A stretch of DNA of 64,000 nt from a virus (IMGVR_UViG_2595698635_000001:6839-70838), one strand, 5' to 3'; shown: positions 9,288 through 63,979, counted from the stretch's first letter. The notes: generated from the letters alone by a model not told the origin. Numbers and translations are program-made.

Positions 9288-9345
9288 GGCGGGCCGGTCC
9301 CGCGCTGACAAGATTTAAGTTACCCGAGTCAGTCGGGTAAGTCAA
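9288..9345 (-). promoter_or_regulatory. Module 1: TTGACT-N17-TAACTT promoter, operator 9320-9340, hairpin 9288-9303
   Basis: TTACCCGA-GTCAG-TCGGGTAA palindrome between -35 and -10. Confidence 0.85.
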
Positions 9346-9384
9346 GTCCTACTGTCGCTCACCGCCTCGGGCTACCCTGGCCTG

Positions 9385-10128
9385 GTGAGCATCCACTGGC
9401 CCATCGACCGCGTGACGGACCCGCTGCCCGACCGCCCCGACCCGGTGACGCCCGAGTGGATCAAGGCGGCGCTGGAGCGCAACGGGGCCGAGACCATGGC
9501 CACCGCGATCATCCACTACCTGAGCGGTCGGCAGTTCGGCTACGAGACCGTGACCGTTCGACCGTGCCCTCAGGGCGTCCGCCACCGCCTCCGCGAGACC
9601 GAGGTGACCTCCTACCTGGTGAGCTGGGAGGGCTACGGCTGGGTCGGCGTCCCGTGCGGCTGTGGCCCGCGCTGCTCGGTCAGCGGGCCACGGGTGATCC
9701 ACCTGCCCGGCCCGGCGGCTGAGATCGAGAGCGTGGTGATCGAGGGCGTGACCATCCCCGAGGTCGGCTACCGGCTGGAGGGCAACGCGCTCTACCGCGT
9801 CGGCGGCAACTGGCCCGCCCAGGATCTGGGCAAGCCGCTCGGTGAGTCGAACACCTGGTCCGTGACCTACCACCGGGGTCAGCCGGTGCCGGGCGGCGTC
9901 GGCGCGCTGACCGGCCTGCTGGCCAAGGAGATCGAGACCGCCATCCACGACGACGGCGAGTGCCGCCTGCCGCGCACCGTCACCACCGTGAGCCGCCAGG
10001 GCGTCACGTACCGCGCCTACGACCCGGCGGTGATCTACAAGACCGGCAAGACCGGCCTCCCCGAGGTCGATCTGTGGCTGGCCTCGGTCAACCCGAACGC
10101 GCTGATGGCCGCGCCGAGCGTGCGATGA
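9385..10128 (+). CDS. Head-to-tail adaptor
   Basis: LSGRQFG...VRPC, CRLP...SRQGV, KTGLPEVDLWLASVNP motifs; synteny. Confidence 0.75.
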   Translation: MSIHWPIDRVTDPLPDRPDPVTPEWIKAALERNGAETMATAIIHYLSGRQFGYETVTVRPCPQGVRHRLRETEVTSYLVSWEGYGWVGVPCGCGPRCSVSGPRVIHLPGPAAEIESVVIEGVTIPEVGYRLEGNALYRVGGNWPAQDLGKPLGESNTWSVTYHRGQPVPGGVGALTGLLAKEIETAIHDDGECRLPRTVTTVSRQGVTYRAYDPAVIYKTGKTGLPEVDLWLASVNPNALMAAPSVR

Positions 10129-10673
10129 CCGCGCCCGGCTGCCGGGTAGACCCGGCCATGGAAGTGATCGGCGCGGCGTCGGCGGCGCTGGCGTCACAGT
10201 TCGCCGATCACCCTCAGTGCCCGCCGCTGGTCGGCGCGACCGAGAACGTGCGGTTCCTGGCCGGTGACGGCGCGCCTCTCGCCGCCTGGGACAGTCACGC
10301 CAAGGGCGGTAAGCGCGGGTGCGCTGAGCCGTTCGTCTGGGTGCGGGCCATGCGCCGGTTCCGCTCGGCCACCTTCCCCCGCGAGACCCTGGACCAGAAC
10401 CCGTGCTCGCTGCCCAAGGTGCTGGCGGTGGAGCTGGGCGTGGCGTGGTGCGCGGTGATCGCTGACCGGCCCGACCGCGCGCCCAAGTTCGAGGATCTGG
10501 CCCGCGAGGCCGAGGTCAGCATGGACACCGCCTGGCGGCTGGAGAACGCGATGTGCGCGGCGGCGAAGACGCTGACCGGCCAGGAGCGACAGGTCGGGAC
10601 GGACACCGTGGTCCCGTATGGTCCTGAGGGAGGGATCATCGCCTGGTCGGGCGTGATCTACGCGAGCTACTGA
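10125..10673 (+). CDS. Virion joining protein (tail terminator-like)
   Basis: ATGA overlap; C-terminal PYGPEGG motif; synteny. Confidence 0.55.
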   Translation: MTAPGCRVDPAMEVIGAASAALASQFADHPQCPPLVGATENVRFLAGDGAPLAAWDSHAKGGKRGCAEPFVWVRAMRRFRSATFPRETLDQNPCSLPKVLAVELGVAWCAVIADRPDRAPKFEDLAREAEVSMDTAWRLENAMCAAAKTLTGQERQVGTDTVVPYGPEGGIIAWSGVIYASY

Positions 10674-10683
10674 GGAGCGAGTC

Positions 10684-11001
10684 ATGGCCAAGATCACCGT
10701 CGAGGGAAGCATCCTGCCGAGCGCGTTCCTGGCGCGCGGTGACCGCGCCGAGGTCAACGACAGCGACCCCACCGTGCAGTACCTGATCGACCAGGGCTAC
10801 GTGAACGTGGTCGACACCGAGACCGGCCAGCTGGAGCCGCCCCCGGTCCCCGAGGCCCCGAGCCCGAACGCCAGCACCAAGGACTGGCAGGCGTTCCTCA
10901 CCAGCCAGGGCGTCGACTACCCGACCGAGGGCGACGGCTCCGGTCGCAACGAGCTGGTCGCGCTCTGGGAGCGGACGATCAATCCGCCCCCGGCTGAGTG
11001 A
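10684..11001 (+). CDS. Hypothetical protein with C-terminal HeH/LEM-like motif
   Basis: GAGGAG RBS; PSPNASTKDWQAFL...RNELVAL. Confidence 0.65.
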   Translation: MAKITVEGSILPSAFLARGDRAEVNDSDPTVQYLIDQGYVNVVDTETGQLEPPPVPEAPSPNASTKDWQAFLTSQGVDYPTEGDGSGRNELVALWERTINPPPAE

Positions 11002-11411
11002 CCGCGCGCATCCGCGCCCGCGTCGAGATTGACGAGGCGGCGCTGGAGCGGGAGTCGGGGCGTGATCTGCGCGCGTTCCACCGGTCGCTCACCCGGCGCA
11101 TCGCCAATCAGGCCCGCGCCGACGTCCCCGTGCGTACCGGCAACCTCGGGCGCACCATCGGTGAGATGCCTCAGGTCTACACCCCGTTCCATGTGAGCGG
11201 CGGCGTCGAGGCCACCGCCGACTACGCGGCTGCCGTGCATGAGGGGTCGCGGCCACACCGCATCGCCGCCCGCAGCGCCGACGCGCTGCGCTTCGTCTGG
11301 CACGGGCGCGTGATGTTCCGCAAGTCCGTCTGGCACCCCGGCACCCGAGCCCGCCCGTTCCTGCGCAACGCCGCCCGCCGGGTCGTCGGCGCTGACCCGC
11401 GCGTCCACTGA
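10998..11411 (+). CDS. HK97 gp10-like tail/neck component
   Basis: PVRTGNL, YAAAVHEG, HPGTRARPFLRNA motifs. Confidence 0.75.
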   Translation: MTARIRARVEIDEAALERESGRDLRAFHRSLTRRIANQARADVPVRTGNLGRTIGEMPQVYTPFHVSGGVEATADYAAAVHEGSRPHRIAARSADALRFVWHGRVMFRKSVWHPGTRARPFLRNAARRVVGADPRVH

Positions 11412-11526
11412 GTTATCCGACTCGGTGCTACCCTCGGGCGTGAGGTGAGTGTTCCAGCGAGGCCGGAACTTAAAGTCGGAGGCGACCGGCGCTCACCGTG
11501 ACCTCAGGGCTTCGGGAAGGAACCAC

Positions 11527-12204
11527 ATGGCTACGTTCGGTGCTGGCGGCAAGAAGATCGAGGACGACGCGGATCAGCTGATGCCGCCCGCCGACCTCAC
11601 CGAGCGCGACCCCGACCCCTACGGCGACAACGAGCCCGGTGAGCCGGTCATCGTGGGCGAGGTGACCCCGGTCGAGGACCAGGTGGCCCAGGTCAACGAC
11701 GACGAGTACCCGGCCCGCCCGTTCCGCGAGGACGAGCCCCGCTCCGAGGGCGCGGTGGCCCGAGTCGCGCCGGACCCCGAGACCGCCGACGAGAAGCAGG
11801 CCCGGCTGGCCCGGCTCCGCGCCGAGCTGGCGGCGGCTGAGGCCGAGGACGCGCCGGACACCGGCACCGCCGTGGCCCTGGTCGAGAAGTGGGACGTCAC
11901 CAAGGACACGGACGAGACCTGGCCGTATGACTTCCTGGAGTTCGAGGGCGACAAGCTCGGCGTCCGGCTGCCGCAGAAGCAGGCCCTGGCGGCGTTCTCG
12001 CTGGCCAGCTCCAAGTACGTCAGCCTCGGGGTCAAGAATGACCTGACCGGCCTGTTCATCGCGCGCCACCTGAGCCCCGAGAGCTACGGGCGCGTGTTCT
12101 CCCGCCTGATGGACCCCGACGACTCGGCCTACACCGTCGAGACCGTGGGCGAGCTGTTCAACGCCATCGTGACGGCCAGTGTCGAGGCCGACAAGTCCGA
12201 GTAG
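11527..12204 (+). CDS. Tail assembly chaperone
   Basis: GAAGGA RBS; acidic protein immediately before tape measure; no second frameshift ORF follows. Confidence 0.7.
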   Translation: MATFGAGGKKIEDDADQLMPPADLTERDPDPYGDNEPGEPVIVGEVTPVEDQVAQVNDDEYPARPFREDEPRSEGAVARVAPDPETADEKQARLARLRAELAAAEAEDAPDTGTAVALVEKWDVTKDTDETWPYDFLEFEGDKLGVRLPQKQALAAFSLASSKYVSLGVKNDLTGLFIARHLSPESYGRVFSRLMDPDDSAYTVETVGELFNAIVTASVEADKSE

Positions 12205-30553: not shown

Positions 30554-30580
30554 GGTCATCTGCGTGCCTTTCGTGGTGGT

Positions 30581-48202: not shown

Positions 48203-48212
48203 TCACCGGTAC

Positions 48213-48554: not shown

Positions 48555-48560
48555 GGCAAC

Positions 48561-48643: not shown

Positions 48644-48900
48644 ACATCTAACCAGATCGGCCCCTGTTTTGTCAAGCGGTTGACAATCTCCTTGACAAGG
48701 GCGGTAGGGTCAGCCTGAGAACTCGCTGACCCACCGAGCCAGGGTCAATGTCAGGGTGGTTCTGAGTGAGAGTGATACTCCTCCTGCCCGTGGCCCCGCC
48801 ATCGTGATCCGAACGCGCCGCACCCTTCGGGCGCGTTCGCACACTGGCCCCGCCCTCGGCCATCTAGCGCGCCGGGGAGATATGGGGTTATCTTTAATCC

Positions 48901-51065: not shown

Positions 51066-51098
51066 GTCGGGTAACTGTTGCACCGCGTCGCGTAGGCT
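51054..51098 (+). promoter_or_regulatory. Operator copy 6 (51054-51074) upstream of TAGGCT -10
   Basis: CCCGA-GTGAG-TCGGGTAA. Confidence 0.65.
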
Positions 51099-51104
51099 CT
51101 GACC

Positions 51105-51785
51105 ATGACCGTTAGCGATGACGACCTCAGCAGCTTGATCAACGAGGAGCTGCTGGCCCGACGGACCAAGGTGATGTACCTCAAGAACGCCGGGGCCACC
51201 TGGGCTCAGATCGCCCAGCAGGTCGGCGTGTCCATCGCCACCTGTCGCAAGGACATGGCCATCGTCCAGCGCGACATCAACAACGAGCAGCCGAGCCAGG
51301 TCGTGGCCCGTCACCGCGCCGTCATCTTCGACATCCAGCGGGCCAACTACCCGGCCATGATGCGCGGCGACAAGGACGCCGCCATGGTGATCCTCCGCGC
51401 CCTCCACCGTGAGGCCAACCTGCTCGGGCTCGACAGCCCGACCCGAGTGCTGGCGGCGGTCAGCGCGGAGGACTTCGCCAACGAGGCCGCGCGCCTCATC
51501 GAGAGCATTACATCCAAGGACGCCGACACCCTCAAGGAGCTGACCAGTGCGAACCGACCGATCACTGTCGAGGAAGTCCCCCTCCCCGAGCCCGAGGTGG
51601 CTGGACCAGATCAAGGCCAGCCTCCCGCCGTGGCAGGGGAGCCTGATGGACCGGCTGCTCAGCCGCCCGGCGGGTCAGCCGCTGATGGTCGCGCCCCCAC
51701 CGACGCACCCGAGCGCGAGTCCCGCGTACCTGGACAGGCTGGCCTCCCCGACCTTCCCGACGACGACGGATGGTCCAATCTCTGA
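51105..51785 (+). CDS. HTH DNA-binding protein (terminase small subunit-like)
   Basis: GATWAQIAQQVGVSIAT HTH; REANLLGLDSP motif. Confidence 0.7.
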   Translation: MTVSDDDLSSLINEELLARRTKVMYLKNAGATWAQIAQQVGVSIATCRKDMAIVQRDINNEQPSQVVARHRAVIFDIQRANYPAMMRGDKDAAMVILRALHREANLLGLDSPTRVLAAVSAEDFANEAARLIESITSKDADTLKELTSANRPITVEEVPLPEPEVAGPDQGQPPAVAGEPDGPAAQPPGGSAADGRAPTDAPERESRVPGQAGLPDLPDDDGWSNL

Positions 51786-53933: not shown

Positions 53934-54116
53934 AAGGCCCGAGTTAGCGGGTAGTGATGACCGGTCAATCACGGTCTCGCGTACGCTGGCCAGTGCCCGA
54001 CCCTCCGCGCCCGGCAGCTTGATCACTCGCCAGGCCAGACGGCCAACCGTTGGACCCGAGCGGACGCGCTCACCGGTCTTGATCGGCTCTGATCTGAGGA
54101 GGGCGGGCGCTATATC

Positions 54117-54695
54117 TCAGCCGGTCACTGTCCGGCTGGAGCCCCAGTCCTCGGGCTCGGCGTCACAGCACATCGCGCACACGATCATCGGGTCACCGTG
54201 GTTGCCGCGCGTCCCGTCGCACGCCGGGCGCTCGGGCTCGACGTGGTGAGGACAGTCGAACCCCATCGGGTCGGGCTCGCACGTACACGGCTCGACGCGC
54301 CGGACCACCACGCCACCGCCGCCCTTGGGCGGGCGTGGAGGCGGGTTCTGGAGGCCGGTCGGCGGCTCACCTCGGCACGTCCGGCACCGGTACAGGCCGC
54401 TCTCCGTCCAGCCCATCAGCCGCCGGATCGGGATGTTCCCGCACCCCTGGCACCAGTCCCGCGTCGTGGTGTCGACGCTGGGCCTCGGCTGGCGTCCTGC
54501 CACGGGTACCTCCTCGGTGACCTGGTAGTCGCGCCCGTCGATGGCCGTCTCGATGAACGTCCGGTAGGCGCGGTACGCCTCGGCGCTGGCCTGGGCTCGG
54601 CCACCTCGGCGGGCGTTCACGTAGTGGAGCAACCCGGCAACACCGCTGAGCACGCCCGCGCTGCTCAGCATCTGGATGATCAGGTCGGCGGTCAT
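54117..54695 (-). CDS. Membrane-anchored Cys-rich protein
   Basis: ATGA overlap with HNH; N-terminus paralogous to 7716-8048. Confidence 0.65.
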   Translation of the reverse strand: MTADLIIQMLSSAGVLSGVAGLLHYVNARRGGRAQASAEAYRAYRTFIETAIDGRDYQVTEEVPVAGRQPRPSVDTTTRDWCQGCGNIPIRRLMGWTESGLYRCRTCRGEPPTGLQNPPPRPPKGGGGVVVRRVEPCTCEPDPMGFDCPHHVEPERPACDGTRGNHGDPMIVCAMCCDAEPEDWGSSRTVTG

Positions 54696-55060
54696 ACCAG
54701 GCCCGCCGCCAGGTTGGCGCAGTCGGCGGCGTGCGTGGCCAGCCAGTGGACTCCGCAGGCGCGGCACAGGTCGTCGTCACCGTACGGGCTCGCCGCCTGG
54801 GCCAGCGCCCACTTCACCCGAGCGCCCTCACGGTGTGAGCACGTCGGGCAGTGTGGCCTGATGTTCGACCGGATGTACCGCCCGCCTTCGTGGGCGGGGA
54901 CGATCCGGTCGACGTGGATGGTCTTGTCGTTGACCATGGCCCCGCACTCCCAGCAGGGCACCTTGACGCCATCACCGCCGAACCCCGAGGCCGGGCTGAG
55001 TAGCCAGGCCCGCCGGGCGCGCCGGTCGTAGCTGGACCCTCGGTCGTTCCCGTTAGGCAT
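54692..55060 (-). CDS. HNH endonuclease
   Basis: CWECG...VDRIVP...GGRY...NIRPHCPTC. Confidence 0.85.
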   Translation of the reverse strand: MPNGNDRGSSYDRRARRAWLLSPASGFGGDGVKVPCWECGAMVNDKTIHVDRIVPAHEGGRYIRSNIRPHCPTCSHREGARVKWALAQAASPYGDDDLCRACGVHWLATHAADCANLAAGLV

Positions 55061-55268
55061 CGAACTCCTCCTCGTACCAGGGCAGCCACTCACTGGCCGG
55101 GCGCGGTTGACCGGCCTCCACGCTGGCGTCGAACAGGCTCAGCAGGTACTCCAGGTACTGGACGTGCGGGTTAGGCCCGAGCCCGCCGACGTCGGGCGCG
55201 TCGACAATCCGCTGGATGAACTTCCGGCGCTGCTTGGCCACGTCCATCCCGTGGCTGACGGTCTTCAC
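55053..55268 (-). CDS. Hypothetical protein
   Basis: GTGA overlap chain. Confidence 0.65.
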   Translation of the reverse strand: MKTVSHGMDVAKQRRKFIQRIVDAPDVGGLGPNPHVQYLEYLLSLFDASVEAGQPRPASEWLPWYEEEFDA

Positions 55269-55423
55269 CGCGCCGCCCGGCTCGGCGGGTCGAACACCAG
55301 CCGCCAGCGCCCCTGAGGCGGGCACCAGACCAGCACCCAGGCCGACCGCCCGGCGAGGCCGCGCTGAGCGGCGTCAGCGTCATTCAGGCGGGCAACGTCG
55401 GCCCGCGTGGGCACCGGGGTCAC
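55265..55423 (-). CDS. Small hypothetical protein
   Basis: GTGA overlap chain. Confidence 0.5.
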   Translation of the reverse strand: MTPVPTRADVARLNDADAAQRGLAGRSAWVLVWCPPQGRWRLVFDPPSRAAR

Positions 55424-55626
55424 CGCCTGTGCCGCCCTCGGTAGCGCCAGCGCCCGTCCAGGCGCACCAGCAGCCGTCGGCACCCGCCCGCCCCGGCGCA
55501 CTCGACGCCGTTGGCGTACATGAACCAGGCGTGGAAGTGGCGGCAACCAGGGGCACGCCCTGGGCTGGCGACGAACGTCGGCTGGCGGTGGACCGGCACC
55601 GTCGGGTCGATCCGCTGGCCCCTCAC
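55420..55626 (-). CDS. Small hypothetical protein
   Basis: GTGA overlap chain. Confidence 0.5.
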   Translation of the reverse strand: MRGQRIDPTVPVHRQPTFVASPGRAPGCRHFHAWFMYANGVECAGAGGCRRLLVRLDGRWRYRGRHRR

Positions 55627-55853
55627 GGCGCGGGGAACGGGCTCAGGCCGCGCTTCACGCGAGCGTCGACACTCTGGCAGTTGAACGCGTGGTCGGTGGT
55701 CTCGGCGGTCTGGCAACAGGCCCTCACGCCATGGGCGCACGGCCTGACCGAGAAGTCGGCGGTGTCCACGCTGACCGGCTTGCCGCAGATGACGCACTTC
55801 GGCCAGTCGAACCCGCCCGAGCGGTCGGCGTAGTAGTGCTGGTGGTCGGCCAT
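55623..55853 (-). CDS. Small Cys-rich protein
   Basis: TGATG coupling; CVICG. Confidence 0.6.
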   Translation of the reverse strand: MADHQHYYADRSGGFDWPKCVICGKPVSVDTADFSVRPCAHGVRACCQTAETTDHAFNCQSVDARVKRGLSPFPAP

Positions 55854-55999
55854 CAGATCCTCGGCAGGGGGATGCCGCCGGGGTAGGCGATGTCCTTGAG
55901 CCGGTGAAGCTCGGCCTCCTGGGCCTCGGTGAGCTTGTCCCACGGCTTGACGTCGGCCAGCAGAGCGGCGATCTGGCGCTTGGCCTCGGACTTGAACAT
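55853..55999 (-). CDS. Small protein, first gene of module 7
   Basis: GAGGAG RBS after the hairpin. Confidence 0.7.
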   Translation of the reverse strand: MFKSEAKRQIAALLADVKPWDKLTEAQEAELHRLKDIAYPGGIPLPRI

Positions 56000-56018
56000 G
56001 TCGGTCTCCTCGATCAGT

Positions 56019-56074
56019 GGCGGTCGGCCCCGCCTCACACCCATTAAGTTACCCGAGTCAGTCGGGTAAGTCAA
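56019..56074 (-). promoter_or_regulatory. Module 7: TTGACT-N17-TAACTT, operator 56049-56069, hairpin 56019-56034
   Basis: Repeat motif match. Confidence 0.85.
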
Positions 56075-56080
56075 GCTGAC

Positions 56081-56362
56081 TCACGGGCACTCCGTCCCAG
56101 GTCGGTGGACCAGGCGGCATTCCGCGCAGATTGACTCACTCGGGGCCAGCTCGATGTCGCGGAGCCTGAGCCCGTCGCCCTGGCCGTTGGGCCGGTACCA
56201 GTCGGGCGCGTCCATCTCCAGGACGTCGGGCACGCTGTAGGCGCTGTCGTTGTCGCACCCGCCCACCTCGTCGCACCGGTCGCACACCACGGTCAGGTCG
56301 CCCGCGAGCTGGTGATCGGTCCAGGCGTGGCCACACCGGCACACGCGCCCTGGCCGCGTCAT
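56081..56362 (-). CDS. Small Cys-rich protein
   Basis: GGAGG RBS; CRCGH, CAEC. Confidence 0.6.
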   Translation of the reverse strand: MTRPGRVCRCGHAWTDHQLAGDLTVVCDRCDEVGGCDNDSAYSVPDVLEMDAPDWYRPNGQGDGLRLRDIELAPSESICAECRLVHRPGTECP

Positions 56363-56700
56363 CGCCGGGCCTCCTCGGTCTGCTGGCGGGCGTGGCTCGG
56401 GTCGACGCGGAACCACCAGGTCTCGCCCTCGGGTGAGGCCCCGGTCCAGTCGTCGCAGTCGAGCAGGATGAACCCCTCACGCGGGGCCATCGGGTGGTCG
56501 CGCAGTTCGTGGTGCGTGTTGCCCAGGCCATGGGCGTACCGAGGCCGACCGCCCTCGCGGAACGTCAGCCGGGCGGGCAGGTTGACCACCACCGCGCGCC
56601 GATCACCGAGCACGTAGTGGAGCAGGGGCGGATCCTCGATCACCTTGGCCCCGGCGGCGAACAGGGCGAACACCGCCTCCACGCGGCGACGGGCGCTCAC
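56359..56700 (-). CDS. Hypothetical protein
   Basis: Overlap chain. Confidence 0.6.
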   Translation of the reverse strand: MSARRRVEAVFALFAAGAKVIEDPPLLHYVLGDRRAVVVNLPARLTFREGGRPRYAHGLGNTHHELRDHPMAPREGFILLDCDDWTGASPEGETWWFRVDPSHARQQTEEARR

Positions 56701-57182
56701 GCGGACACCTGCTCGATCAGCACGCCGACGCTCATGCGCGGGCCGACGCGGTGCTCAGGGTTGGCGGCGCTCAGGATGAACCGCCCGTACTCGTCGTGGA
56801 CGGTCACCAGGTCGTGCGTGACGCGGAGCTTCATTCGGCCCGGCGGCTCGGTGATGAACGCCATGGACAGCGGGCCGGTCACCGAGTCGGCCCCGAACAG
56901 GTGCTCGACGTACCCGATAATCGACACGCGGGCCTCAGCGCCGGGGTCCAGGTCCACGGTGGGGATCGTGGTCTCGCGGACGTCGAAGTGACGGCGGTCG
57001 GTCGGCCTGGTCGACTTCCACCAGTCCCATAACAGCAGCGCCCCGGCCACCGCGAACGCTTCGGTCCAGCTCCAGTCGGTCACGTCATCCGGCAGGCCGA
57101 ACACGTACTCGGCCACGCGGAGGAACAGCCACATGCCGATCCACCAGGCCGCGATCCGGCCCAGCTCCCAGCGCGCGGTCAC
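56697..57182 (-). CDS. Membrane protein (2 TM)
   Basis: Trp-rich hydrophobic segments; GTGA overlap. Confidence 0.6.
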   Translation of the reverse strand: MTARWELGRIAAWWIGMWLFLRVAEYVFGLPDDVTDWSWTEAFAVAGALLLWDWWKSTRPTDRRHFDVRETTIPTVDLDPGAEARVSIIGYVEHLFGADSVTGPLSMAFITEPPGRMKLRVTHDLVTVHDEYGRFILSAANPEHRVGPRMSVGVLIEQVSA

Positions 57183-57442
57183 CGGGTCTGGTCCAGGGTC
57201 GGGCGGGGCTTCGGGCCGTGATCGGGGCAGAGCAGCCGTCCGATCTGGTCGCACGCGCCGCACACCGGGGCGGCGTCGGCAGCCTGGCGGCGGTCGGTGG
57301 CCCGCGCCAGCCGGTCGGCGCTGGCGGCGTCCCGCTGGAGGTCGATCAGCGTGTCGAGCTTCTGGTTCATGTCCTTGAGCAGGGTCAGGAACTCGTTCAC
57401 GGTGTGCGCGATGTCAAGGTCGATCTTGGGCAGGAGGCCCAT
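57179..57442 (-). CDS. Hypothetical protein
   Basis: GAAAGG RBS. Confidence 0.65.
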   Translation of the reverse strand: MGLLPKIDLDIAHTVNEFLTLLKDMNQKLDTLIDLQRDAASADRLARATDRRQAADAAPVCGACDQIGRLLCPDHGPKPRPTLDQTR

Positions 57443-57710
57443 CGTAGGTGCCTTTCGTGGTGATCGGGAGACCGTTACGCCTCAGCTTGGCGATCTCGTT
57501 CTTGCGGGTGCGGTGGTCTGACGGCGTGCCGCTCAGGCCCCCGATGAATCGTCCGTTCAGCCTCACTTTCCAATGGCCAGGGCGGGTCCGCCCGTGGGGC
57601 TCCAGCTCACCGCCCGCCGCCTCGATGGCGGCGAGCAGTGTCTTGAGTTCCTTGTGCCCGTTGCAGCGCCGTGACTTGCCGGACCCCGGTTGGGGCGGCG
57701 TGACCGTCAC
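57414..57710 (-). CDS. HicA-like protein
   Basis: KELKTLL...GG...GHWKV...GTPSDHR...IAKLRRNG. Confidence 0.65.
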   Translation of the reverse strand: MTVTPPQPGSGKSRRCNGHKELKTLLAAIEAAGGELEPHGRTRPGHWKVRLNGRFIGGLSGTPSDHRTRKNEIAKLRRNGLPITTKGTYDGPPAQDRP

Positions 57711-57928
57711 CGGCCCGCCGCCATTTCCTCGGCGCGCATGTGCTGGCCCATGAAGAACCCGGCGGTGCGCTGAGCGTGCGTGTAGCTGGTGGCGATGGCC
57801 TTGCCGAACCACACTCCGTGGTGCGCCACCTCTACGCGGAACCGACCGTCGAGCAGGTCGGTGATGATCCACTCGAAGTCACCGTCGTACTCGGTGGTGG
57901 AGGTGGTGGTGATCTCGATGGTGACCAT
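57707..57928 (-). CDS. Small protein, first gene of module 8
   Basis: GAGGAG RBS. Confidence 0.7.
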   Translation of the reverse strand: MVTIEITTTSTTEYDGDFEWIITDLLDGRFRVEVAHHGVWFGKAIATSYTHAQRTAGFFMGQHMRAEEMAAGR

Positions 57929-57947
57929 GACGGTCTCCTCTCTGTCT

Positions 57948-58005
57948 GGCGGGCCGGTCCCGCGCTGACCTGATCTAAGTTACCCGAGTCAGTCGGGTAT
58001 GTCAA
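57948..58005 (-). promoter_or_regulatory. Module 8: TTGACA-N17-TAACTT, operator 57980-58000, hairpin 57948-57963
   Basis: Repeat motif match. Confidence 0.85.
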
Positions 58006-58195
58006 CAACCCTGACCGGCAAATATCGGGGCGCAGCCGGGTGACGGCGGACGCGCCCGTCCAGCTTGGGCGCGAACCGCTTCCCGCACACCTGGCACTCG
58101 GCCCGGCCCTTGAAGTTCCGGTGCGGCCACTCGCCCGAGCCTGGGCAGCGCGGCGGTCGGCGCAGCTCCAGCGGCAGCAGAAGCTCGCGGCTCAT
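57989..58195 (-). CDS. Small Zn-finger protein
   Basis: CPGSG...CQVCG...H. Confidence 0.6.
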   Translation of the reverse strand: MSRELLLPLELRRPPRCPGSGEWPHRNFKGRAECQVCGKRFAPKLDGRVRRHPAAPRYLPVRVVDIPD

Positions 58196-58389
58196 CGTGG
58201 CGGGCTGATCACGCCGTCGGCGTCGAGGTAGCTCCAGTCGGTCGGCAAGAAGCCGTCCCGGCACAGCCACTCATCGAGCGCGGTGAACAGCTCAGCGCCG
58301 CGCTCTACGTCGGCCTGGCTGAGGCGCTGATCGGCGCTCACGCGAGCGCACAGGGCGCGTAGCTCGTTCAGTGTGGCGTTGGGGTCCAT
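58192..58389 (-). CDS. Hypothetical protein (MDPNATL...ALDEWL...GFLP)
   Basis: AGGAG RBS. Confidence 0.75.
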   Translation of the reverse strand: MDPNATLNELRALCARVSADQRLSQADVERGAELFTALDEWLCRDGFLPTDWSYLDADGVISPPR

Positions 58390-58444
58390 CTTGGTCTCCT
58401 ATCGGTGAGGGCGGGCCAGCCTGAGCCAGCCCGCCCTCAGTCGG

Positions 58445-58663
58445 TCATCGGACGGTGATCCACCGCATGGTCGTGGCCAGCAGGTCGTCGTAGTCCCCGT
58501 CGGTGGCCTCGTTGACGTAGGCGGTCACCTCGTCGGCGGGCACCCCGGCCTGGCGCAGGGCGCGCTGGACCTTGGACACGATCAGGAACCCGTTTCCGTC
58601 CTGGCCGATCAGCTCCACCTCCACCTCGGGGTACTTCGGCCCGTCGGCCTCGGCGGCGCTCAC
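58445..58663 (-). CDS. Hypothetical protein (LIGQDGNGF...GDYDDLL)
   Basis: Conserved-looking small phage protein; GTGA overlap. Confidence 0.75.
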   Translation of the reverse strand: MSAAEADGPKYPEVEVELIGQDGNGFLIVSKVQRALRQAGVPADEVTAYVNEATDGDYDDLLATTMRWITVR

Positions 58664-59316
58664 CAGCGGTTCGGCTCGGACTCGGGGTGGACGTAGCCAC
58701 CGCCCGCGAACGGGCCACCGCCCCGGCCACCTCGGCCACCGCCGGGCGCAGCGCTGCCGCCCCCGCCCAGGCCGACGATGAGCATCCCCGAGAACGGGTC
58801 ACCATGGTCCACCGCGCCGACGGTCTCAGACCGCTCCACGCGCCCGAACCGGCCCATCACCTCGGCGGTGGGCGGCTCCGCGCCGGGCGGGGGACCGAGG
58901 TGGTCGCCGCCGGTCATGTGGACCAGGCTCGGCCAGTTGGCCTCCCCGATGAACTCCAGCAGGCCCGGCCAGTTGAACCGGCGGGTCTCCGAGCCCGTCA
59001 CGACCCAGCGCACCGACCGGCCCTCACGCCAGCCGAGGGCGGCGTAGCTGTACTCGCGCCCGGCCTGGTACTTGGTGAAGTAGACCACCGGGCGGTCGTC
59101 GGCCCCGACCTCGGGCATCTTGGGCCGAGCCGCCTCGCGGGCCATCAGCAGCGCGCGGGCCTCGGCGCGCTCGCGCTCACCGGCCAGCTCCAGCAGGCGC
59201 GCGGCCTCCTGGCGCAGGTACGCGGCGCTGGGCGGCTGAGCGGTCACGCCCTCCGAGGGCGCGGTGGCGCGCTCACCCTCGGGCAGGCTGACGCTCTCGT
59301 TCGCGTAGTCAGTCAT
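58660..59316 (-). CDS. Hypothetical protein
   Basis: AAGGAG RBS. Confidence 0.7.
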   Translation of the reverse strand: MTDYANESVSLPEGERATAPSEGVTAQPPSAAYLRQEAARLLELAGERERAEARALLMAREAARPKMPEVGADDRPVVYFTKYQAGREYSYAALGWREGRSVRWVVTGSETRRFNWPGLLEFIGEANWPSLVHMTGGDHLGPPPGAEPPTAEVMGRFGRVERSETVGAVDHGDPFSGMLIVGLGGGGSAAPGGGRGGRGGGPFAGGGYVHPESEPNRW

Positions 59317-60229
59317 CGGTCTTGCTCTCCTTCTTGGTGTCGCGAGCCTCGGCCCGGTCGGCCTTGGTCTCCTTGGTGGTGGCGTCCTTGGCGGGCTTGT
59401 CGTCCGCGTCGGTCTTGGTGGTGGGCTTCCGGTCGTTGCGCGACCAGCCAGCGTCCACGGCGGGCTTGAGGTGGCGTTCCACCTCGTCGGTGAGCCGGTC
59501 GTTACCGGTCAGGGTGCGCTCGGTGTCGCGCATCGGCTTGAGGATGGACAGCTCGCGCACCGGGATCACGCGCTTGGTGAACGTGGTGCCGTTGGGGTTC
59601 TTGGTCACGGTCACCTCGGCCTCGTCCAGCCGGGTCAGCGGGTCGTCAGCGCCGCCGTTGCCGTACTGCGGGTGGACCACGGCCCAGCTGGCCAACGATT
59701 CAGCCGTCGCCAGGAGATTCCACGGGCGGTCGGGGAAATCGCCCACAGCGTCTCGCTCAGCCACGATCTCCTCCCAGTCGTGGGTCTTCACGGTCTGGGC
59801 CGGACTCAGCCCGAACGCCCGGCTGATGCCGTGGTCCGAGTCGGGGTCACCGATCACGACGTAGCGCGTGTCGGTGCGCGTGTCCTGGGCCTCCACGCCA
59901 TGGGTCACCTGAGCGCCCTTGCTGAGGCCGATCACCACGGCAGGGTCGTCGGTCTGGGCCACCACGGCGGCGACCTGAGGCACCGACGCCTGAGGGTTGG
60001 CCCAGGGCGCGCCGTCGTAGATCGGCACCTCCAGCTGGTCGCGGTCGGTGACGAACGGGTCGGTGAGCCCGGTCGGGCTGCCGCCCGTACCGAACACCTC
60101 GGTGAGCTTCATGCCGGTACCGGTGCCGCCGATGAACACGACGTCGGTCTTGGCCGCAGCGAGCGCGGTGGGCGTCACCAGGGCGGCGACAGTGGCCGCG
60201 CAGGCGGCGGTGGTGAGCAGGGTCTTCAT
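59309..60229 (-). CDS. Secreted PE-PPE-domain serine hydrolase-like protein
   Basis: Signal peptide; GGTG, IGLSKGA (GxSxG), IGDP, D.VGDFPDRPWNLLA...VHPQY. Confidence 0.8.
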   Translation of the reverse strand: MKTLLTTAACAATVAALVTPTALAAAKTDVVFIGGTGTGMKLTEVFGTGGSPTGLTDPFVTDRDQLEVPIYDGAPWANPQASVPQVAAVVAQTDDPAVVIGLSKGAQVTHGVEAQDTRTDTRYVVIGDPDSDHGISRAFGLSPAQTVKTHDWEEIVAERDAVGDFPDRPWNLLATAESLASWAVVHPQYGNGGADDPLTRLDEAEVTVTKNPNGTTFTKRVIPVRELSILKPMRDTERTLTGNDRLTDEVERHLKPAVDAGWSRNDRKPTTKTDADDKPAKDATTKETKADRAEARDTKKESKTDD

Positions 60230-60326
60230 GGTCTGGTCTCTCTGGGTAGGTGCTGGCGGGGTATCTGGTGGCGGTAGGTGGCCCGCCGGGCTCGGTGCTG
60301 AACCCGGCGGGCCGGTCTTGGTGAGG

Positions 60327-60617
60327 TCAGCCGACCTCGGGGCGGTCGTCGGTGTGGCCGTTGACGTAGTTGGTCACGCGGATGACGTCCATGCCGTTGG
60401 CGGTGTCCAGGTCGAACACGGCCACGCGGGCCTCGGTGCCGGTCTCGCCGTCGGCGTAGGTGCCGATCAGGACGTTCCAGGTCACGGTGGTCCAGGTGAT
60501 CTGAGCGCCGGTCAGCTCGACCAGCTCCATCATCGCGCCGAACATGGTGGTCACGCCGTGATCTTCGCTCAGCGCTTCGACGGCCCCGGCGGTGACGGCG
60601 ACGATGTTGTTGGCCAT
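60327..60617 (-). CDS. Hypothetical protein, first gene of module 9
   Basis: AAGGAGAG RBS. Confidence 0.75.
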   Translation of the reverse strand: MANNIVAVTAGAVEALSEDHGVTTMFGAMMELVELTGAQITWTTVTWNVLIGTYADGETGTEARVAVFDLDTANGMDVIRVTNYVNGHTDDRPEVG

Positions 60618-60638
60618 GGTGTCTCTCCTTTGTCTGTC

Positions 60639-60695
60639 GGCGGGACGGCCCCGCCTCACACCCATTAAGTTACCCGAGTCAGTCGGGTATGTCAA
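60639..60695 (-). promoter_or_regulatory. Module 9: TTGACA-N17-TAACTT, operator 60670-60690, hairpin 60639-60655
   Basis: Repeat motif match. Confidence 0.85.
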
Positions 60696-60718
60696 CAACA
60701 ACTAGCAGCAAATTGTGA

Positions 60719-60751
60719 TGGCCCGCCCTGGCCGATCACCAGGGCGGGCCA
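60719..60751 (-). terminator. Stem-loop after the DUF932 gene
   Basis: TGGCCCGCCCTGG / CCAGGGCGGGCCA. Confidence 0.7.
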
Positions 60752-60760
60752 CGCTCCCCG

Positions 60761-61822
60761 CTAGGCGGGCAGCAGCGCCGTGAACAGCTGGCCCTTGAGC
60801 TGGCCCAGGCTGTCCGACATCAGCGTCCGCTGAGCCCGGCGGATGGCGCGCTCCTCGTCGGTGGCGTCAGCGCCGAGGCTGACCGGGGCCACATGGTCGA
60901 GGTAGCGGGTGCCCGCGTTGTAGGCCCCGAACGCCGTGCCCTTGAACGCGGCCACGGTGGCGTCGCTGGCGTAGACCTCGAAGACCTCCAGCGCCTTGGC
61001 CTTGCGGGCCTCGGCCTGCTTCTCGGTGGTGGCCCCGCCGACGCCCCAGACGGCCTCCAGGCTCTCCAGAACCTCGGCGTCGGACATCTCCCGCGCGATC
61101 AGCCGCTCGCACTGCTCCACGAACGTGTCGCGGTAGGCGAACGTCAGCCCGAGCAGCGCCCGCACCTCGGCCAGACGGGCCTTCGGGGAGCCGGTGTGGC
61201 GCAGCGCCACCTGGGACCGCGCCGAGCCCTCGGCCATCCGCTGAGTGTTGGCGCACACGATCCGCACCGGGCTGATCAGCGCCCGCAGGCTGGCCTCGCC
61301 CGAGTGGTTGTTCAGGACGGAGATATACAGGTCGGTGGTGTCCAGCTCGCCCGTGACCGGGCTGCGAAACTCCATGTGGGCGGGCATCTTCATCGTGACG
61401 AAGGTGTCCCGGCCACCGCGCAGCGCGCCGATGGTCTCGATGTGTGCGCCGCCCTCGTCCACGATCTCGCTCAGCAGCTCGGTGGTCTCCTCGTTCTGGA
61501 ACGGGGTCCACCGGTCACCGACCACGCCCAGCGCCTCGGTGCCGCCGTTGATCGGGTTGGTCCGCACCACCGCGTAGCGGTCGGGAACGATCAGGCTGAG
61601 GGTCGCGCCCTCCACGCCCGACTGGTCCGGCACCTCGGCGGTCAGCGGCACCTTGCGGACGTCCCAGCCGCGCATGTGGGCGGCGTCCAGGGCCTCGTCG
61701 GTGGTCATGGCGTGGCCGACGGCCTGGCCGAGGCGGTGCCAGGCGCTGACTGTGCCGTCGGCGCGGGCCTCGGAGTCGGCGAAGCTGGTCACGCCGTCGG
61801 TGGTGTCGAGTTCGTGGGCCAT
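60761..61822 (-). CDS. DUF932-family protein
   Basis: AWHRLG, LGVVG.RW.PFQN, ETIGALRGG, NNHSG, SPVRIVCANT. Confidence 0.85.
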   Translation of the reverse strand: MAHELDTTDGVTSFADSEARADGTVSAWHRLGQAVGHAMTTDEALDAAHMRGWDVRKVPLTAEVPDQSGVEGATLSLIVPDRYAVVRTNPINGGTEALGVVGDRWTPFQNEETTELLSEIVDEGGAHIETIGALRGGRDTFVTMKMPAHMEFRSPVTGELDTTDLYISVLNNHSGEASLRALISPVRIVCANTQRMAEGSARSQVALRHTGSPKARLAEVRALLGLTFAYRDTFVEQCERLIAREMSDAEVLESLEAVWGVGGATTEKQAEARKAKALEVFEVYASDATVAAFKGTAFGAYNAGTRYLDHVAPVSLGADATDEERAIRRAQRTLMSDSLGQLKGQLFTALLPA

Positions 61823-61847
61823 GGTGGTCTCCTCTGGGTCGGTGTCA

Positions 61848-61903
61848 GCGGGCCGGTCCCGCCTGACAAGAACTAAGTTACCCGAGTGAGTCGGGTATGT
61901 CAA
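61848..61903 (-). promoter_or_regulatory. Module 10: TTGACA-N17-TAACTT, operator 61878-61898, hairpin 61848-61863
   Basis: Repeat motif match. Confidence 0.85.
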
Positions 61904-61921
61904 GCTCTGCTAGCAGGCAAT

Positions 61922-62074
61922 TTAGACGGAAATTAGGCCGAGCCCGAGGAACACGGGGATGGCCAGGAACCCGCCCAGGGCCATCACGGCCCCGGCGTAG
62001 CTCCATGCGGAGCGGTCGGGCGCGCCCGCCACCAGGAAGCACCCGGCCAGGGCGATGACGACGAGCACGATCAC
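61922..62074 (-). CDS. Small membrane protein (2 TM)
   Basis: Hydrophobic; GTGA overlap. Confidence 0.6.
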   Translation of the reverse strand: MIVLVVIALAGCFLVAGAPDRSAWSYAGAVMALGGFLAIPVFLGLGLISV

Positions 62075-62433
62075 GGCATGACCACCTTGAACTCGGAGCG
62101 GAGCAGGCACTGGCGCTTGCCCCTCGGTTTGACCAAGCAGTACAGCGGCTGGCCGTCGTTGGTGGCCATCACCGCGCTGATGCGGCACCTGAGCCCGGCG
62201 TACTCGGCCACGTCGCCCACAATGGGCACCACTGCCGTCTCATCGTCGCCCAGGCGGTTCAGCGCGGCGTCCTCGGCCTCGGCCTGGGCGTCGTCCTTGG
62301 TGGCGTGCCAGCCGATCTCCACGCCCGGCCCGTCCACGAACCAGGGCGTGCCCGAGCCCTTGGCGCTCATCCACCTGGTGATCTTGTACGGCCCGGCGGT
62401 GTACTCGCCGGGCTCGGGCCTGGTCCACTTCAC
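62071..62433 (-). CDS. Hypothetical protein
   Basis: GGAGG RBS; GTGA overlap. Confidence 0.65.
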   Translation of the reverse strand: MKWTRPEPGEYTAGPYKITRWMSAKGSGTPWFVDGPGVEIGWHATKDDAQAEAEDAALNRLGDDETAVVPIVGDVAEYAGLRCRISAVMATNDGQPLYCLVKPRGKRQCLLRSEFKVVMP

Positions 62434-62720
62434 TCGGGGCCTCCCGTCAGGAGGCGGCTGACGCCGCTGGGCACCTGGGCCGAGCCACCGCACCCGCAGA
62501 GCGTGCGGGCGGCGTAGATGGCGTCGGGGCAGCAGGCGTTCGCGTGGAACTCGTCCCACCACTCCGACCAGGTGAGCGCGTGGTCGAAGGTCTCGCCCAG
62601 GTTGGCGGGCTGGTCACCCTCGGGCGCTGGCGCGCTGGCGGGCCGGTGAGACCGGACGAACGTGGCGTAGCCGCCGTCACCGACCCGGCTCGGGGCGGTC
62701 TCGCGGGACTGGAACTTCAT
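62430..62720 (-). CDS. Hypothetical protein
   Basis: GAGGGA RBS. Confidence 0.65.
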   Translation of the reverse strand: MKFQSRETAPSRVGDGGYATFVRSHRPASAPAPEGDQPANLGETFDHALTWSEWWDEFHANACCPDAIYAARTLCGCGGSAQVPSGVSRLLTGGPE

Positions 62721-62733
62721 CGGGCGGTCCCTC

Positions 62734-63051
62734 TCAGTAACCGGCAGCCGCGAGGGCTGCCTTGGCGTCGGCGGCGGCGGGGATCGACTTCACGTAGACG
62801 ATGGACGAGTCGGGCCGGTGGTCGATGTCGTACCCGGCGGCGGTCATGGCCTCGGCCAGCTGGCCAGCCTTGCGGACGTTGGCCGAGTCGAGGTCGCTGA
62901 CGCTGACCCAGACTTGCGCCGGGACCGTCCGACCGTTGCCGCGCCGGGCGCAGTAGCCGGGCTTCGGGAACGGCTGAGTGATGATTCCGAAGTCGCGCTT
63001 GAGGGCGCGGCTGATGTGCGGGGCGGTCGGCAGGCCGTTGGTCACGGTCAT
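62734..63051 (-). CDS. Hypothetical protein, first gene of module 11
   Basis: GAGGAG RBS. Confidence 0.75.
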   Translation of the reverse strand: MTVTNGLPTAPHISRALKRDFGIITQPFPKPGYCARRGNGRTVPAQVWVSVSDLDSANVRKAGQLAEAMTAAGYDIDHRPDSSIVYVKSIPAAADAKAALAAAGY

Positions 63052-63071
63052 GGTGGTCTCCTCGGGGTCTC

Positions 63072-63128
63072 GGCGGGTCGGCCCCGCCTCACACGAACTA
63101 AGTTACCCGACTGACTCGGGTATGTCAA
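63072..63128 (-). promoter_or_regulatory. Module 11: TTGACA-N17-TAACTT, operator 63103-63123 (core inverted), hairpin 63072-63088
   Basis: Repeat motif match. Confidence 0.85.
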
Positions 63129-63169
63129 GCGCCCCGACCAGGCTATTCACCTGGCCGGGGCGCTCGGGC

Positions 63170-63772
63170 TCACTCAGACGCAGCGGCCTTGCGGGCGGCG
63201 CGGCGCTCACGGCGGGCCTGGAGGCGCTTGGCCTTGTCCTCGGGGGACTCGGCGGCGCGCTTGGCCAGCCGACGCTCGGCCCGGCGGGCGCGGCGAGCGG
63301 CCTTCTTGGCGTCGGCGTCGTCGGCCACCGGGGCGGGCTCGGCCACCGCGCCCTCGGTCTCGGCCTCGGCCTGAACCTCGGTCTCCTCGGCGTCGGCCTC
63401 GGTGACGATCTCGGTCTCGGGCTCGGCGGCGGGCTCGACCTCGGTCGGCAGTTCGATCTGGGCCTCGGCCTTCGGGGCCTTCTTGGCCAGCTTGGCCGCG
63501 ACCAGCTCGGTGAACGCCTCGGCGGGGATCTCGCCCCAGCCGTCCAGGAACTCGGTGCCGTCGATCTTGCCGTTGATGGCGGTCGGGACCACCGGGTAGA
63601 CCTTGGCGTCGGCTCCGTGGAGACGGCCCTTGGCTGCCTTGTAGGCGGCGGCGAACGTCTTGTGCCAGGTGGCACCGTCGACCGTGGCGACGTAGGGCAT
63701 GGTGCCTGAGGTGCGGGTGACGGGGGCGTTCTCGGTGCCGGGGATCTGGGCGGTGAAGGTGATGGTGGCCAT
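63170..63772 (-). CDS. Hypothetical protein with acidic linker and basic C-terminal tail
   Basis: AAGGAGAG RBS; GC3 codons. Confidence 0.75.
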   Translation of the reverse strand: MATITFTAQIPGTENAPVTRTSGTMPYVATVDGATWHKTFAAAYKAAKGRLHGADAKVYPVVPTAINGKIDGTEFLDGWGEIPAEAFTELVAAKLAKKAPKAEAQIELPTEVEPAAEPETEIVTEADAEETEVQAEAETEGAVAEPAPVADDADAKKAARRARRAERRLAKRAAESPEDKAKRLQARRERRAARKAAASE

Positions 63773-63796
63773 GGTGTCTCTCCTTGGGTTGTTGTC

Positions 63797-63853
63797 GGCG
63801 GGTCGGCCCCGCCTCACATCAACTAAGTTACCCGAGTCAGTCGGGTAAGTCAA
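63797..63853 (-). promoter_or_regulatory. Module 12: TTGACT-N17-TAACTT, operator 63828-63848, hairpin 63797-63813
   Basis: Repeat motif match. Confidence 0.85.
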
Positions 63854-63950
63854 GCGAACCGTGGAGGAAATTGTGAACCAGGTTCTCCCTGGTCAGCGCC
63901 AGGAGAAACGTCCACCCCCGGTACCGCCCCCGTCACCGGCTCCGAGCACC

Positions 63951-63979
63951 AAGTTACCCGACTCACTCGGGTAAGTCAA
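63951..63979 (-). promoter_or_regulatory. Module 13: TTGACT-N17-TAACTT, operator 63954-63974 (core inverted)
   Basis: Repeat motif match; tandem with module 12. Confidence 0.8.

Follow-up and report, generated by a model that had tools for sequence, protein, structure and literature searches.

Dyad elements embedded in the promoters of a Cluster B mycobacteriophage as candidate operators of a phage-encoded regulator

Dyad sites and promoter organization

The stretch of DNA under study (the window) covers 64,000 bp, namely bases 6839–70838 of the 70,838-bp virus record IMGVR_UViG_2595698635_000001, and has a G+C content of about 70%. It carries 13 copies of a 21-bp palindromic element, the dyad, with the formula TTACCCGA-(S T S A S)-TCGGGTAA. 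Sequence comparison assigned this lytic-type phage to Cluster B as a Julieunavirus-like virus: its right arm is 85–88% identical over about 60% of the length to the Mycobacterium phages 39HC, 40BC, Julie1 and Hosp, and the farther matches of this arm are other Cluster B phages. These four phages belong to the genus Julieunavirus of the subfamily Bclasvirinae and are placed in Cluster B in PMC3585329; according to that paper, the plaques of 39HC and 40BC are turbid, those of Hosp and Jolie1 are clear, and the ends are circularly permuted. An earlier note on this DNA had seen no integrase, and indeed a family search for both tyrosine and serine integrases found neither of them in the genome.

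The same note had listed 13 palindromic sites and had placed ten of them in the spacers of leftward TTGAC(A/T)-N17/18-TA(ACT/GTG)T promoters; all the sites and all ten placements were confirmed. The promoter form is TTGAC(A/T)-N17-TAACTT in eight cases on the minus strand (9320, 56049, 57980, 60670, 61878, 63103, 63828 and 63954) and TTGAC(A/T)-N18-TAGTGT in two (31450 and 38568). A search with the 21-mer TTACCCGANNNNNTCGGGTAA allowing up to three mismatches returned these ten sites together with 48565 and 51054, i.e., 12 matches in the window against 0.08 expected, and none of 100 shuffled sequences reached 12. The remaining site, at 48183, whose right arm is degenerate (TCGGTATT), was recovered with the core pattern CCGA-STSAS-TCGG, which matches the window at exactly these 13 coordinates. 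Another two are found at genome positions 1772 and 4732, within the first 6.8 kb, which brings the genome-wide total to 15; a reversed-pattern control over the whole genome gave no matches. All 15 sites are located within or immediately beside promoter-like elements; only the site at 48565 is additionally downstream of another promoter.

A -35 box close to TTGACA followed by a spacer of 16–19 bp, which was used to define a SigA-type promoter, was found at 10 of the 13 window sites. The dyad overlaps the -35 box by one base and the -10 box by two or three. In eight of the ten spacer-type promoters, these elements form part of a longer cassette with a GC hairpin, and the cassettes are alike over about 70 nt. 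A cassette often opens with a hairpin of the upstream unit; then follow, in this order, an A/T-rich AATTTGC-like stretch, the -35 box, the dyad, the -10 box, 11–12 nt, the leader hairpin (GGCGGG-N5-CCCGCC, -12.5 kcal/mol) and, before ATG, a ribosome site of the AGGAG type. The hairpins that close the upstream units reach -45.5 kcal/mol before 60670 (z = -5.4) and -42.9 kcal/mol before 63103 (z = -3.2). No Rfam family was found at gathering score in the window, and the leader hairpin has no Rfam match. Transcription starting 6–8 nt after the -10 box would put this hairpin 3–5 nt from the 5' end of the RNA. In other bacteria, a stem-loop in such a position guards messages from 5'-end-dependent decay, and the simplest role of the leader hairpin would be protection of the message 5' end.

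Five of the 15 genome sites lack the TTGAC(A/T) -35 box or the cassette. They precede the genes of RuvC, of a P-loop protein (annotated as a small terminase), of a DUF7423 protein and of a TerS-like protein, or, at 48183, abut a TTGACG box. The promoters of the RuvC, P-loop and DUF7423 genes have -10 boxes TAACAT, TATGAT and TAGTGT, respectively, each followed by 6 nt and ATG; in the promoter of the gene at 51105 the dyad lies over the -35 region, with TAGGCT, 6 nt and ATG downstream. The constant 6-nt gap, with TANNNT exactly 6 nt ahead of ATG in five stand-alone promoters, is a leaderless layout and lends independent support to the view that the TANNNT boxes are real -10 elements.

Counted on the sequence, the centre of the dyad is at about -41 from the predicted start at 51054, and at about -48/-49 from a second promoter at 48183 and, at 31450, from a possible lysin promoter. 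Such distances would suit a positive or dual-purpose site, where a phage factor aids the polymerase at promoters with a poor -35 box or switches it from the strong cassettes; lambda CI and phi29 p4 act in a positive or dual manner. It is consistent with this that nearly all recognizable promoters of the phage bear the word, including those with a poor -35 box. However, cassette promoters with a consensus -35 box and the optimal 17/18-bp spacer should need no activator, at the RuvC and P-loop genes the dyad has a cassette-like spacer position in which a bound protein is expected to block the polymerase, and no activator-type protein was identified. We therefore consider this explanation unlikely. 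The positions of the promoters and of the genes of two candidate DNA-binding proteins are given in Table 1.

Table 1. Dyad-bearing promoters of the window and genes of the candidate reader proteins (window coordinates; strand in brackets).
Feature	Position	-35 box	Dyad	-10 box	Leader hairpin	ATG	Remarks
Cassette 1	9267–9345 (-)	TTGACT 9340–9345	9320–9340	TAACTT 9317–9322	9288–9304	9269	
Cassette 2	31395–31475 (-)		31450–31470	TAGTGT 31446–31451	31418–31434	31397	18-nt spacer
Promoter	38520–38593 (-)	TTGACT	38568–38588	TAGTGT	longer, of a different kind		N18 spacer; upstream of helicase/replication genes
Promoter	48094–48203 (-)	TTGACG	48183–48203, half-degenerate	A/T-rich region	48125–48140	48096	dyad directly upstream of -35 box
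Promoter	48552–48590 (-)	GAGACT	48565–48585	TAGTGT		6 nt past -10 box	weak promoter, dyad in N18 spacer; DUF7423 protein
Stand-alone dyad	51054–51107 (+)		51054–51074	TAGGCT, 18 nt after dyad		51105, 6 nt past -10 box	TerS-like HTH gene
Cassette	55997–56074 (-)	56069–56074	56049–56069	56046–56051	56019–56034	55999	
Cassette	57926–58005 (-)	58000–58005	57980–58000	57977–57982	57948–57964	57928	
Cassette	60615–60695 (-)	60690–60695	60670–60690	60667–60672	60639–60655	60617	cargo includes DUF7280 and PE-PPE-domain proteins
Cassette	61820–61903 (-)	61898–61903	61878–61898	61875–61880	61848–61863	61822	DUF932 protein
Cassette	63049–63128 (-)	63123–63128	63103–63123	63100–63105	63072–63088	63051	flipped centre, CTGAC on + strand
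Cassette	63770–63853 (-)	63848–63853	63828–63848	63825–63830	63797–63813	63772	
Promoter	63951–63979 (-)		63954–63974		none (no GC hairpin)		right end of record; no ribosome site
XRE-family HTH protein	30125–30559 (-)						144 aa; predicted two-domain Aca2/YdiL/SO3848-type fold; favoured candidate reader
AlpA/excisionase-like small DNA-binding protein	29928–30128 (-)						66 aa; last gene of XRE operon; second candidate reader

Conservation of the dyad and its variants in Cluster B

To evaluate selection on the dyad, the sites of the phage were compared with those of its close relatives. The numbers of sites were similar (15 in the analyzed phage and in 39HC, 14 each in Julie1 and Hosp), and 14 of the 15 sites have orthologues in all three relatives. 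In these 14 orthologous groups of four genomes, none of the 140 columns of the ten core-arm positions was variable, nor was any of the 28 columns of the T/A positions 10 and 12; the outer arms had 7 variable columns of 84, and the flanks (-45 to +40) had 215 of 901 (24%). The difference between core and flanks is highly significant (Fisher p = 7e-16) and is a conservative estimate, since other parts of the cassette fall within the flanks. The DNA around the sites at 51054 and 56049 is unrelated between genomes (on both sides at 51054), and the dyad or the cassette is kept. The view that the palindrome is a cis element in its own right rather than promoter filler is upheld by the invariant core within drifting flanks and by the five sites without a consensus -35 box or cassette. 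It was also observed that upstream of the cassettes at 56049 and 60670, or on both sides of 51054, close relatives carry unrelated DNA, i.e., there are mosaic breakpoints; the cassettes may act as recombination joints.

The degenerate arms of the sites at 38568, 48183 and 51054 are not accompanied by compensating changes, which means that the constraint acts on sequence and not on pairing. The comparison thus indicates that the dyad is read as sequence and not as a structure. A role as RNA, in which the palindrome would serve as a hairpin that terminates or processes the incoming transcripts of the upstream unit, can be given very little credence. As RNA the dyad does fold, at -10.0 kcal/mol, and a terminator scan flags the dyad at 61879–61897 with its ACTTAGTTCT tail. 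However, this is the only dyad flagged in 54000–64000, compared with a shuffle mean of 2.8; the degenerate arms stay unpaired, both orientations are found among the sites, some of which lie in divergent intergenic regions, and separate, stronger hairpins already precede several cassettes (60670, 63103).

The centre of the dyad, xTyAx, occurs in four states only, namely GTCAG, GTGAG, CTGAC and CTCAC (e.g., window 9328–9332 and 63111–63115). The state differs between genomes in 8 of the 14 orthologous groups. Because the centre flips between orthologues, its orientation is free, which fits a symmetric reader indifferent to orientation.

The comparison was then widened to 13 genomes, including four of the B6 type (the analyzed phage, 39HC, Julie1 and Hosp), Vincenzo, Zemanar, Baee, LilMcDreamy, PDRPxv, CRB2, Pipefish, FrenchFry and NHagos. 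The skeleton pattern TTGACWNNCCSNNNNNNNNSGGNTA gave no match in Baee, FrenchFry, Pipefish, CRB2 and NHagos because their -35 boxes or spacers differ, and the lineage cassettes were located with hairpin-anchored and promoter-anchored scans. The cassette was present in every Cluster B lineage sampled, and the word in its spacer was lineage-specific. In the B1 type (PDRPxv), a CCCGCC-N3-GTCGGG-like word in either orientation lies between TTGACA and TAACTT/TAAGTT; Zemanar and Vincenzo have TTGACT, CCCGCC-TTA-GTCGGG and TAGTGT or TAACTT, and Baee and LilMcDreamy have TAGACT and CCCGCC-N3-GTCGGG. The spacer word is CCCTCC-N3-GTCGGG in CRB2. Pipefish (B3) combines TTGACA, CCCGAC-N4/5-GTGG and TATTGT, with a 16-nt spacer and the look of an extended -10 element, and FrenchFry (B2) has GAGACA and CCGCC/CCGCG...GACG. 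The Gordonia phage NHagos has the same layout with still another spacer word; its cassette promoters carry the inverted repeat ACAACACC...GGTGTTGT bracketing the -10 box, and in its central region (about 48643–48657) the exact B6-type core CCCGAGTGAGTCGGG is found.

The number of CCCGCC-N3-GTCGGG matches, with the shuffle range in brackets, was 11 in Zemanar (0–5), 20 in Vincenzo (2–8), 14 in Baee (1–3), 17 in LilMcDreamy (0–8), 15 in PDRPxv (2–4) and 17 in CRB2 (0–10). The GC hairpin accompanies the cassettes of all these lineages. Of 100 cassette hairpins counted in the 13 genomes, 96 have a 5-nt loop; next to the fixed stem, on its outer side, there is a G-C pair in 75, A-T in 6, G-T in 6 and no pairing in 13. 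In 256 B1-type records, a 31/35 match to the promoter of the analyzed phage lies at the extreme right end. For B1 phages, at least 10 top-scoring promoters have been described in a reverse-strand block at the right end (10.1101/2023.05.30.542743), and a palindrome is not mentioned in the accessible part of that text.

The stand-alone sites follow the same pattern as the cassettes. In all 13 genomes, the leaderless RuvC promoter carries the word of its own lineage directly upstream of the -10 box: the B6 dyad in the four B6-type genomes, CCCGCC/GTCGGG in either orientation in Vincenzo, Zemanar, Baee, LilMcDreamy and PDRPxv, CCCTCC in CRB2, and the B3, B2 and NHagos words in Pipefish, FrenchFry and NHagos, respectively. 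The P-loop gene promoter has the lineage word in 8 of the 10 genomes with a match, and central-region sites carry it in Vincenzo, Baee, LilMcDreamy and CRB2. In FrenchFry, the RuvC word is shared with a divergent cassette; there (about 6545–6600), the back-to-back cassette and RuvC promoters have the two arms, ACAATAC and GTATTGT, as their -10 boxes, so that the inverted repeat is built of the promoter elements themselves.

These data bear on two further explanations. According to the first, the spacer word has no meaning in trans, the cassette copies are homogenized by duplication and gene conversion, and the palindrome hitch-hikes with them. The likeness of the cassettes over about 70 nt, their location at breakpoints between unrelated upstream DNA and the restriction of centre changes to four states already present in each genome, as expected from recombination between copies, agree with this. 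However, the stand-alone sites share with the cassettes the dyad alone, only about 20 nt, which copying between cassettes cannot easily explain, and nevertheless they keep it and track the lineage variant; in addition, the core does not vary at all, as opposed to flanks that include other cassette parts. We judge hitch-hiking to be very unlikely. According to the second, the dyad is a host regulon signal that has been borrowed by the phage and is recognized by a transcription factor of the host (Mycolicibacterium). No direct support for this was found. Those Cluster B records that name a host give M. smegmatis mc2 155, and a word that differs between phage lineages with one isolation host cannot be explained by a host factor. 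Among 185,579 species genomes, the strict B6-type word gave four single hits in unrelated metagenome-assembled genomes and was absent from the mycobacterial genomes there, although degenerate host sites would be missed by such a search; it also occurs in three IMG/VR contigs. A host reader thus seems very improbable. The best reading of the lineage variants is that a phage-encoded reader would have co-evolved with its sites.

Candidate reader proteins and cargo genes

Cassette 2 drives the genes of a DUF6011 protein, an XRE-family helix-turn-helix (HTH) protein and an AlpA-like protein. The XRE gene is located behind a cassette in PDRPxv and Zemanar as well, and it was found at a constant genome position in 490 phage records. 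Its product matches HTH_31 (E 9e-7, Pfam) and phrog_955. An AlphaFold model based on a 21-sequence alignment had a predicted local distance difference test score (pLDDT) of 89, and a Foldseek search showed that the only full-length PDB matches of this model are SO3848 (E 2e-3, TMq 0.62), Aca2 and YdiL, which are named in PMC8434428 as proteins sharing both Aca2 domains. At the fold level only, and with weak E-values, the XRE protein is predicted to consist of an N-terminal HTH and an Aca2-type C-terminal dimerization domain; the formation of a dimer is suggested by this likeness of fold.

The genes of the XRE, AlpA-like, gp68-like and gp72-like proteins are present in all 13 genomes, and that of the RHH protein in 12 (there was no tblastn match in LilMcDreamy); since the candidate binders are nearly all universal, presence or absence cannot tell them apart. 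The recognition helix of the XRE protein, RRDYQ(R/H)IE, is kept in the 10 genomes with the GTCGGG half-site and altered in Pipefish, FrenchFry and NHagos, which lack it. The segment KSVRSL of the AlpA-like protein is common to the analyzed phage, Zemanar, PDRPxv, CRB2 and NHagos. Whether the XRE/AlpA operon encodes the reader seems to us about evenly balanced, with the XRE protein ahead.

The protein encoded at 51105–51785 has an N-terminal HTH and long helices. By fold it came closest, though weakly, to small terminases (E 0.03–0.17, TM 0.2–0.3), and some of its homologues match Sigma70_r4_2; the label "Rnase E" in related records looks wrong. Being weakly TerS-like by fold, it was demoted as a possible autoregulator of the site at 51054. 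Five candidate binders had been proposed in the earlier note, and that proposal holds in so far as a dimer-type HTH protein (XRE) is encoded behind one of the promoters in question, whereas the 51105 protein turned out to be a poorer candidate. The name "LamD-like" given to NHagos homologues led nowhere.

Analysis of the cargo of the right-arm cassettes (10 proteins) with Pfam revealed one DUF932, one PE-PPE and one DUF7280 protein, one weak sub-threshold Ig-like match and six proteins without a family. The DUF932 and PE-PPE-domain genes lie at window 60761–61822 and 59309–60229, respectively. PADLOC, whose models cover defence and not anti-defence, gave no match for the cargo when nine cargo proteins and the XRE protein were submitted. 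Cassette 1 drives a DUF7185 gene (Pfam) that is set backwards within the row of virion genes. The start annotated for its 39HC homologue corresponds to window position 9311 (gene 9006–9311), which is at, or upstream of, the point where the transcript is predicted to begin; ATG 9269 with the ribosome site GAGAGG is a more likely start, and the DUF7185 match begins at residue 13. In the central region, ATG 48096 is the start of the leftward replication block, and Vincenzo has the orthologous arrangement.

Two further segments next to dyad promoters were noted. In 48590–48675, a leftward promoter (TTGACA at about 48670–48675) is followed by about 55 nt of alternating CG/CA, which is prone to form Z-DNA, and then by the dyad at 48565. 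The promoter and the CG tract are kept in 11 of the 13 genomes scanned, including NHagos, with no match in Baee and LilMcDreamy. In 63854–63950, about 100 non-coding bases follow the promoter at 63954 and end in a hairpin and a T-run just before the next cassette; they are kept in the three relatives and could represent a short non-coding transcript or the leader of a tandem promoter.

Putative function of the dyad and comparison with known systems

Judging from the conservation described above, the regulon of promoter-embedded putative operators is real and strongly selected. The dyad is probably the operator of a phage-encoded sequence-specific DNA-binding protein, likely a dimer, that would control the promoters jointly, and the XRE protein is the favoured reader. 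The sites, their layout, their conservation and their change with lineage are shown, whereas binding by a protein, repression and its timing, and which protein is the reader, are inferred. As the dyad fills the whole gap between the -35 and -10 boxes in ten promoters, a protein bound to it should exclude the polymerase, i.e., keep the host SigA RNA polymerase off. The cassette promoters would fire on phage entry and would then be damped together as the regulator accumulates. The XRE protein, possibly together with the adjacent AlpA-like protein, would read the dyad, and because their operon starts at a dyad promoter, negative feedback would result. The GC hairpin at the 5' end may shield the end of the message.

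Several observations weigh against the dyad being a simple operator of this kind. The boxes TAACTT and TAGTGT fit TANNNT, the looser rule that mycobacterial -10 boxes follow, and match TATAAT at only three of six positions; that TAACTT does so is the reason why a generic E. coli-style sigma-70 scan of 54000–64000 found no promoters. The assignment of these promoters to the mycobacterial SigA consensus, made in the earlier note, is therefore borne out by the -35 box and the spacer at the ten sites, while the -10 box agrees with the looser rule only. Further, sites also precede the RuvC-like resolvase, P-loop "small terminase" and TerS-like genes, with which a purely early regulon does not fit: it had been suggested that one palindrome governs all early promoters, and the shared cis element with its lineage variants stands, but the set is wider than early and includes RuvC and packaging-type genes. 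The effect may not be repression everywhere, as the sites at about -41 and about -48/-49 would also allow for activation or a switch.

The centre of the dyad is a further difficulty. The two x positions are identical in all 58 sites of the four genomes, so that the half-sites differ at one position, which a simple homodimer model does not predict. The same holds for all 12 sites of another relative, of 71 kb, and none of these sites is a perfect 21-bp palindrome; the exception to the rule is one unrelated 10-kb contig with CTGAG. It may be that perfect palindromes are selected against or that the sites are copied from one another. In Pipefish (B3), FrenchFry (B2) and NHagos, the spacer word is conserved but forms no clear dyad, so that a dimer on a palindrome fails as a description of the whole group.

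The XRE protein as the reader also meets with objections. The Aca2 matches of its model are weak (E 0.02–0.05; TM 0.53–0.63, TMt 0.61–0.63), sequence identity in the fold matches is 13–20%, and DUF1870 was matched by none of the 21 family members (E up to 10), as opposed to HTH_31 in 21 of 21. The correlation of the recognition helix with the spacer word follows phylogeny and is weak evidence for this reason. Finally, NHagos contains the core CCCGAGTGAGTCGGG and has a different XRE helix, which argues against the XRE protein at the NHagos site and fits the AlpA-like protein better.

Among described systems, the Aca2 unit (acrIF8-aca2 of phage ZF40; PMC6765145, PMC8434428, PMC13551039) resembles the arrangement found here in its strong host-type promoter, the inverted repeat over the -35/-10 region, the HTH dimer encoded in the operon that it represses (here, the candidate XRE protein) and the structured RNA at the 5' end of the message. 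In both cases, an inverted repeat covers the promoter of the regulator's own operon; here, with the XRE protein as the candidate regulator, it is the dyad 31450–31470 in the spacer of the DUF6011-XRE-AlpA promoter. Aca2 acts at IR1 by excluding the polymerase (PMC6765145), and Aca proteins have been predicted to control up to three neighbouring operons (PMC13551039). In units of the Aca2 type, the protein also binds 5'-UTR hairpins and stops translation. In contrast to the one to three sites of Aca2, the phage has 15 spread over the genome; the hairpin is found in eight of the ten spacer-type promoters and lies upstream of the ribosome site instead of covering it; the DUF1870 match is missing, the structural E-values are weak, and no anti-CRISPR or anti-defence gene was recognized among the cargo scanned here. 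A genome-wide dual control of the Aca2 type, in which the XRE protein would bind both the dyad as DNA and the 5' hairpin as RNA and would throttle about ten units in a phage without a lysogeny module, is in our opinion quite unlikely. As part of such control, the throttled units would be separately insulated, small host-takeover or anti-defence genes regulated both transcriptionally and post-transcriptionally. The hairpin stem GGCGGG/CCCGCC spells the CCCGCC half-site of several lineages.

The stoperators of Cluster A (PMC6550527) are similar in that a single phage protein has numerous scattered sites (as many as about 30 per genome), the motifs differ between lineages and track the repressor, and the early lytic promoter contains some that are true operators. 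However, stoperators are described there as 13-bp asymmetric sites, oriented with transcription, located mostly outside promoters and blocking elongation, in temperate phages with an immunity repressor. Here the element is a 21-bp dyad, all 15 sites are at promoters, the centre flips freely and no integrase was found. The features that define stoperators are thus absent, and the parallels with Cluster A stoperators and Cluster K SAS elements drawn in the earlier note are analogies only. The 17-bp repeat TGTTCGGNNNCCGAACA of Cluster O (PMC4351075) is likewise a multi-copy, dyad-symmetric element; its inverted repeat is invariant, its centre varies and has no fixed orientation, and its reader is not known. 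It differs in sequence and in having more than 30 copies, many of them intragenic, mapped apart from 8–9 SigA-like promoters.

One phage regulator with many dispersed operators is an already known kind of system. In P1 (C1) and the Streptomyces phage phiC31 (conserved inverted repeats), one repressor serves many operators at early promoters, and phi29 p4 shuts off early promoters. P1 and phiC31 are temperate, and their site sequences and proteins are unrelated to the dyad system. No published description of the dyad and nothing in print on the control of gene expression in Cluster B were found in a literature search, with subscription reviews and supplements outside its reach. Cluster B is among the largest sequenced groups of mycobacteriophages, with more than 350 genomes cited (PMC9262239).

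If the dyad is indeed an operator of this kind, it would define the first regulatory circuit for Cluster B phages and could serve to test in what way a phage that lacks lysogeny turns off strong promoters of its own. The cassettes would offer strong, compact and repressible promoter/operator/leader modules with naturally diverged operators for mycobacterial genetics, and the Aca2-like fold predicted for the candidate regulator would mark the small cargo genes as candidates for anti-defence or host takeover.

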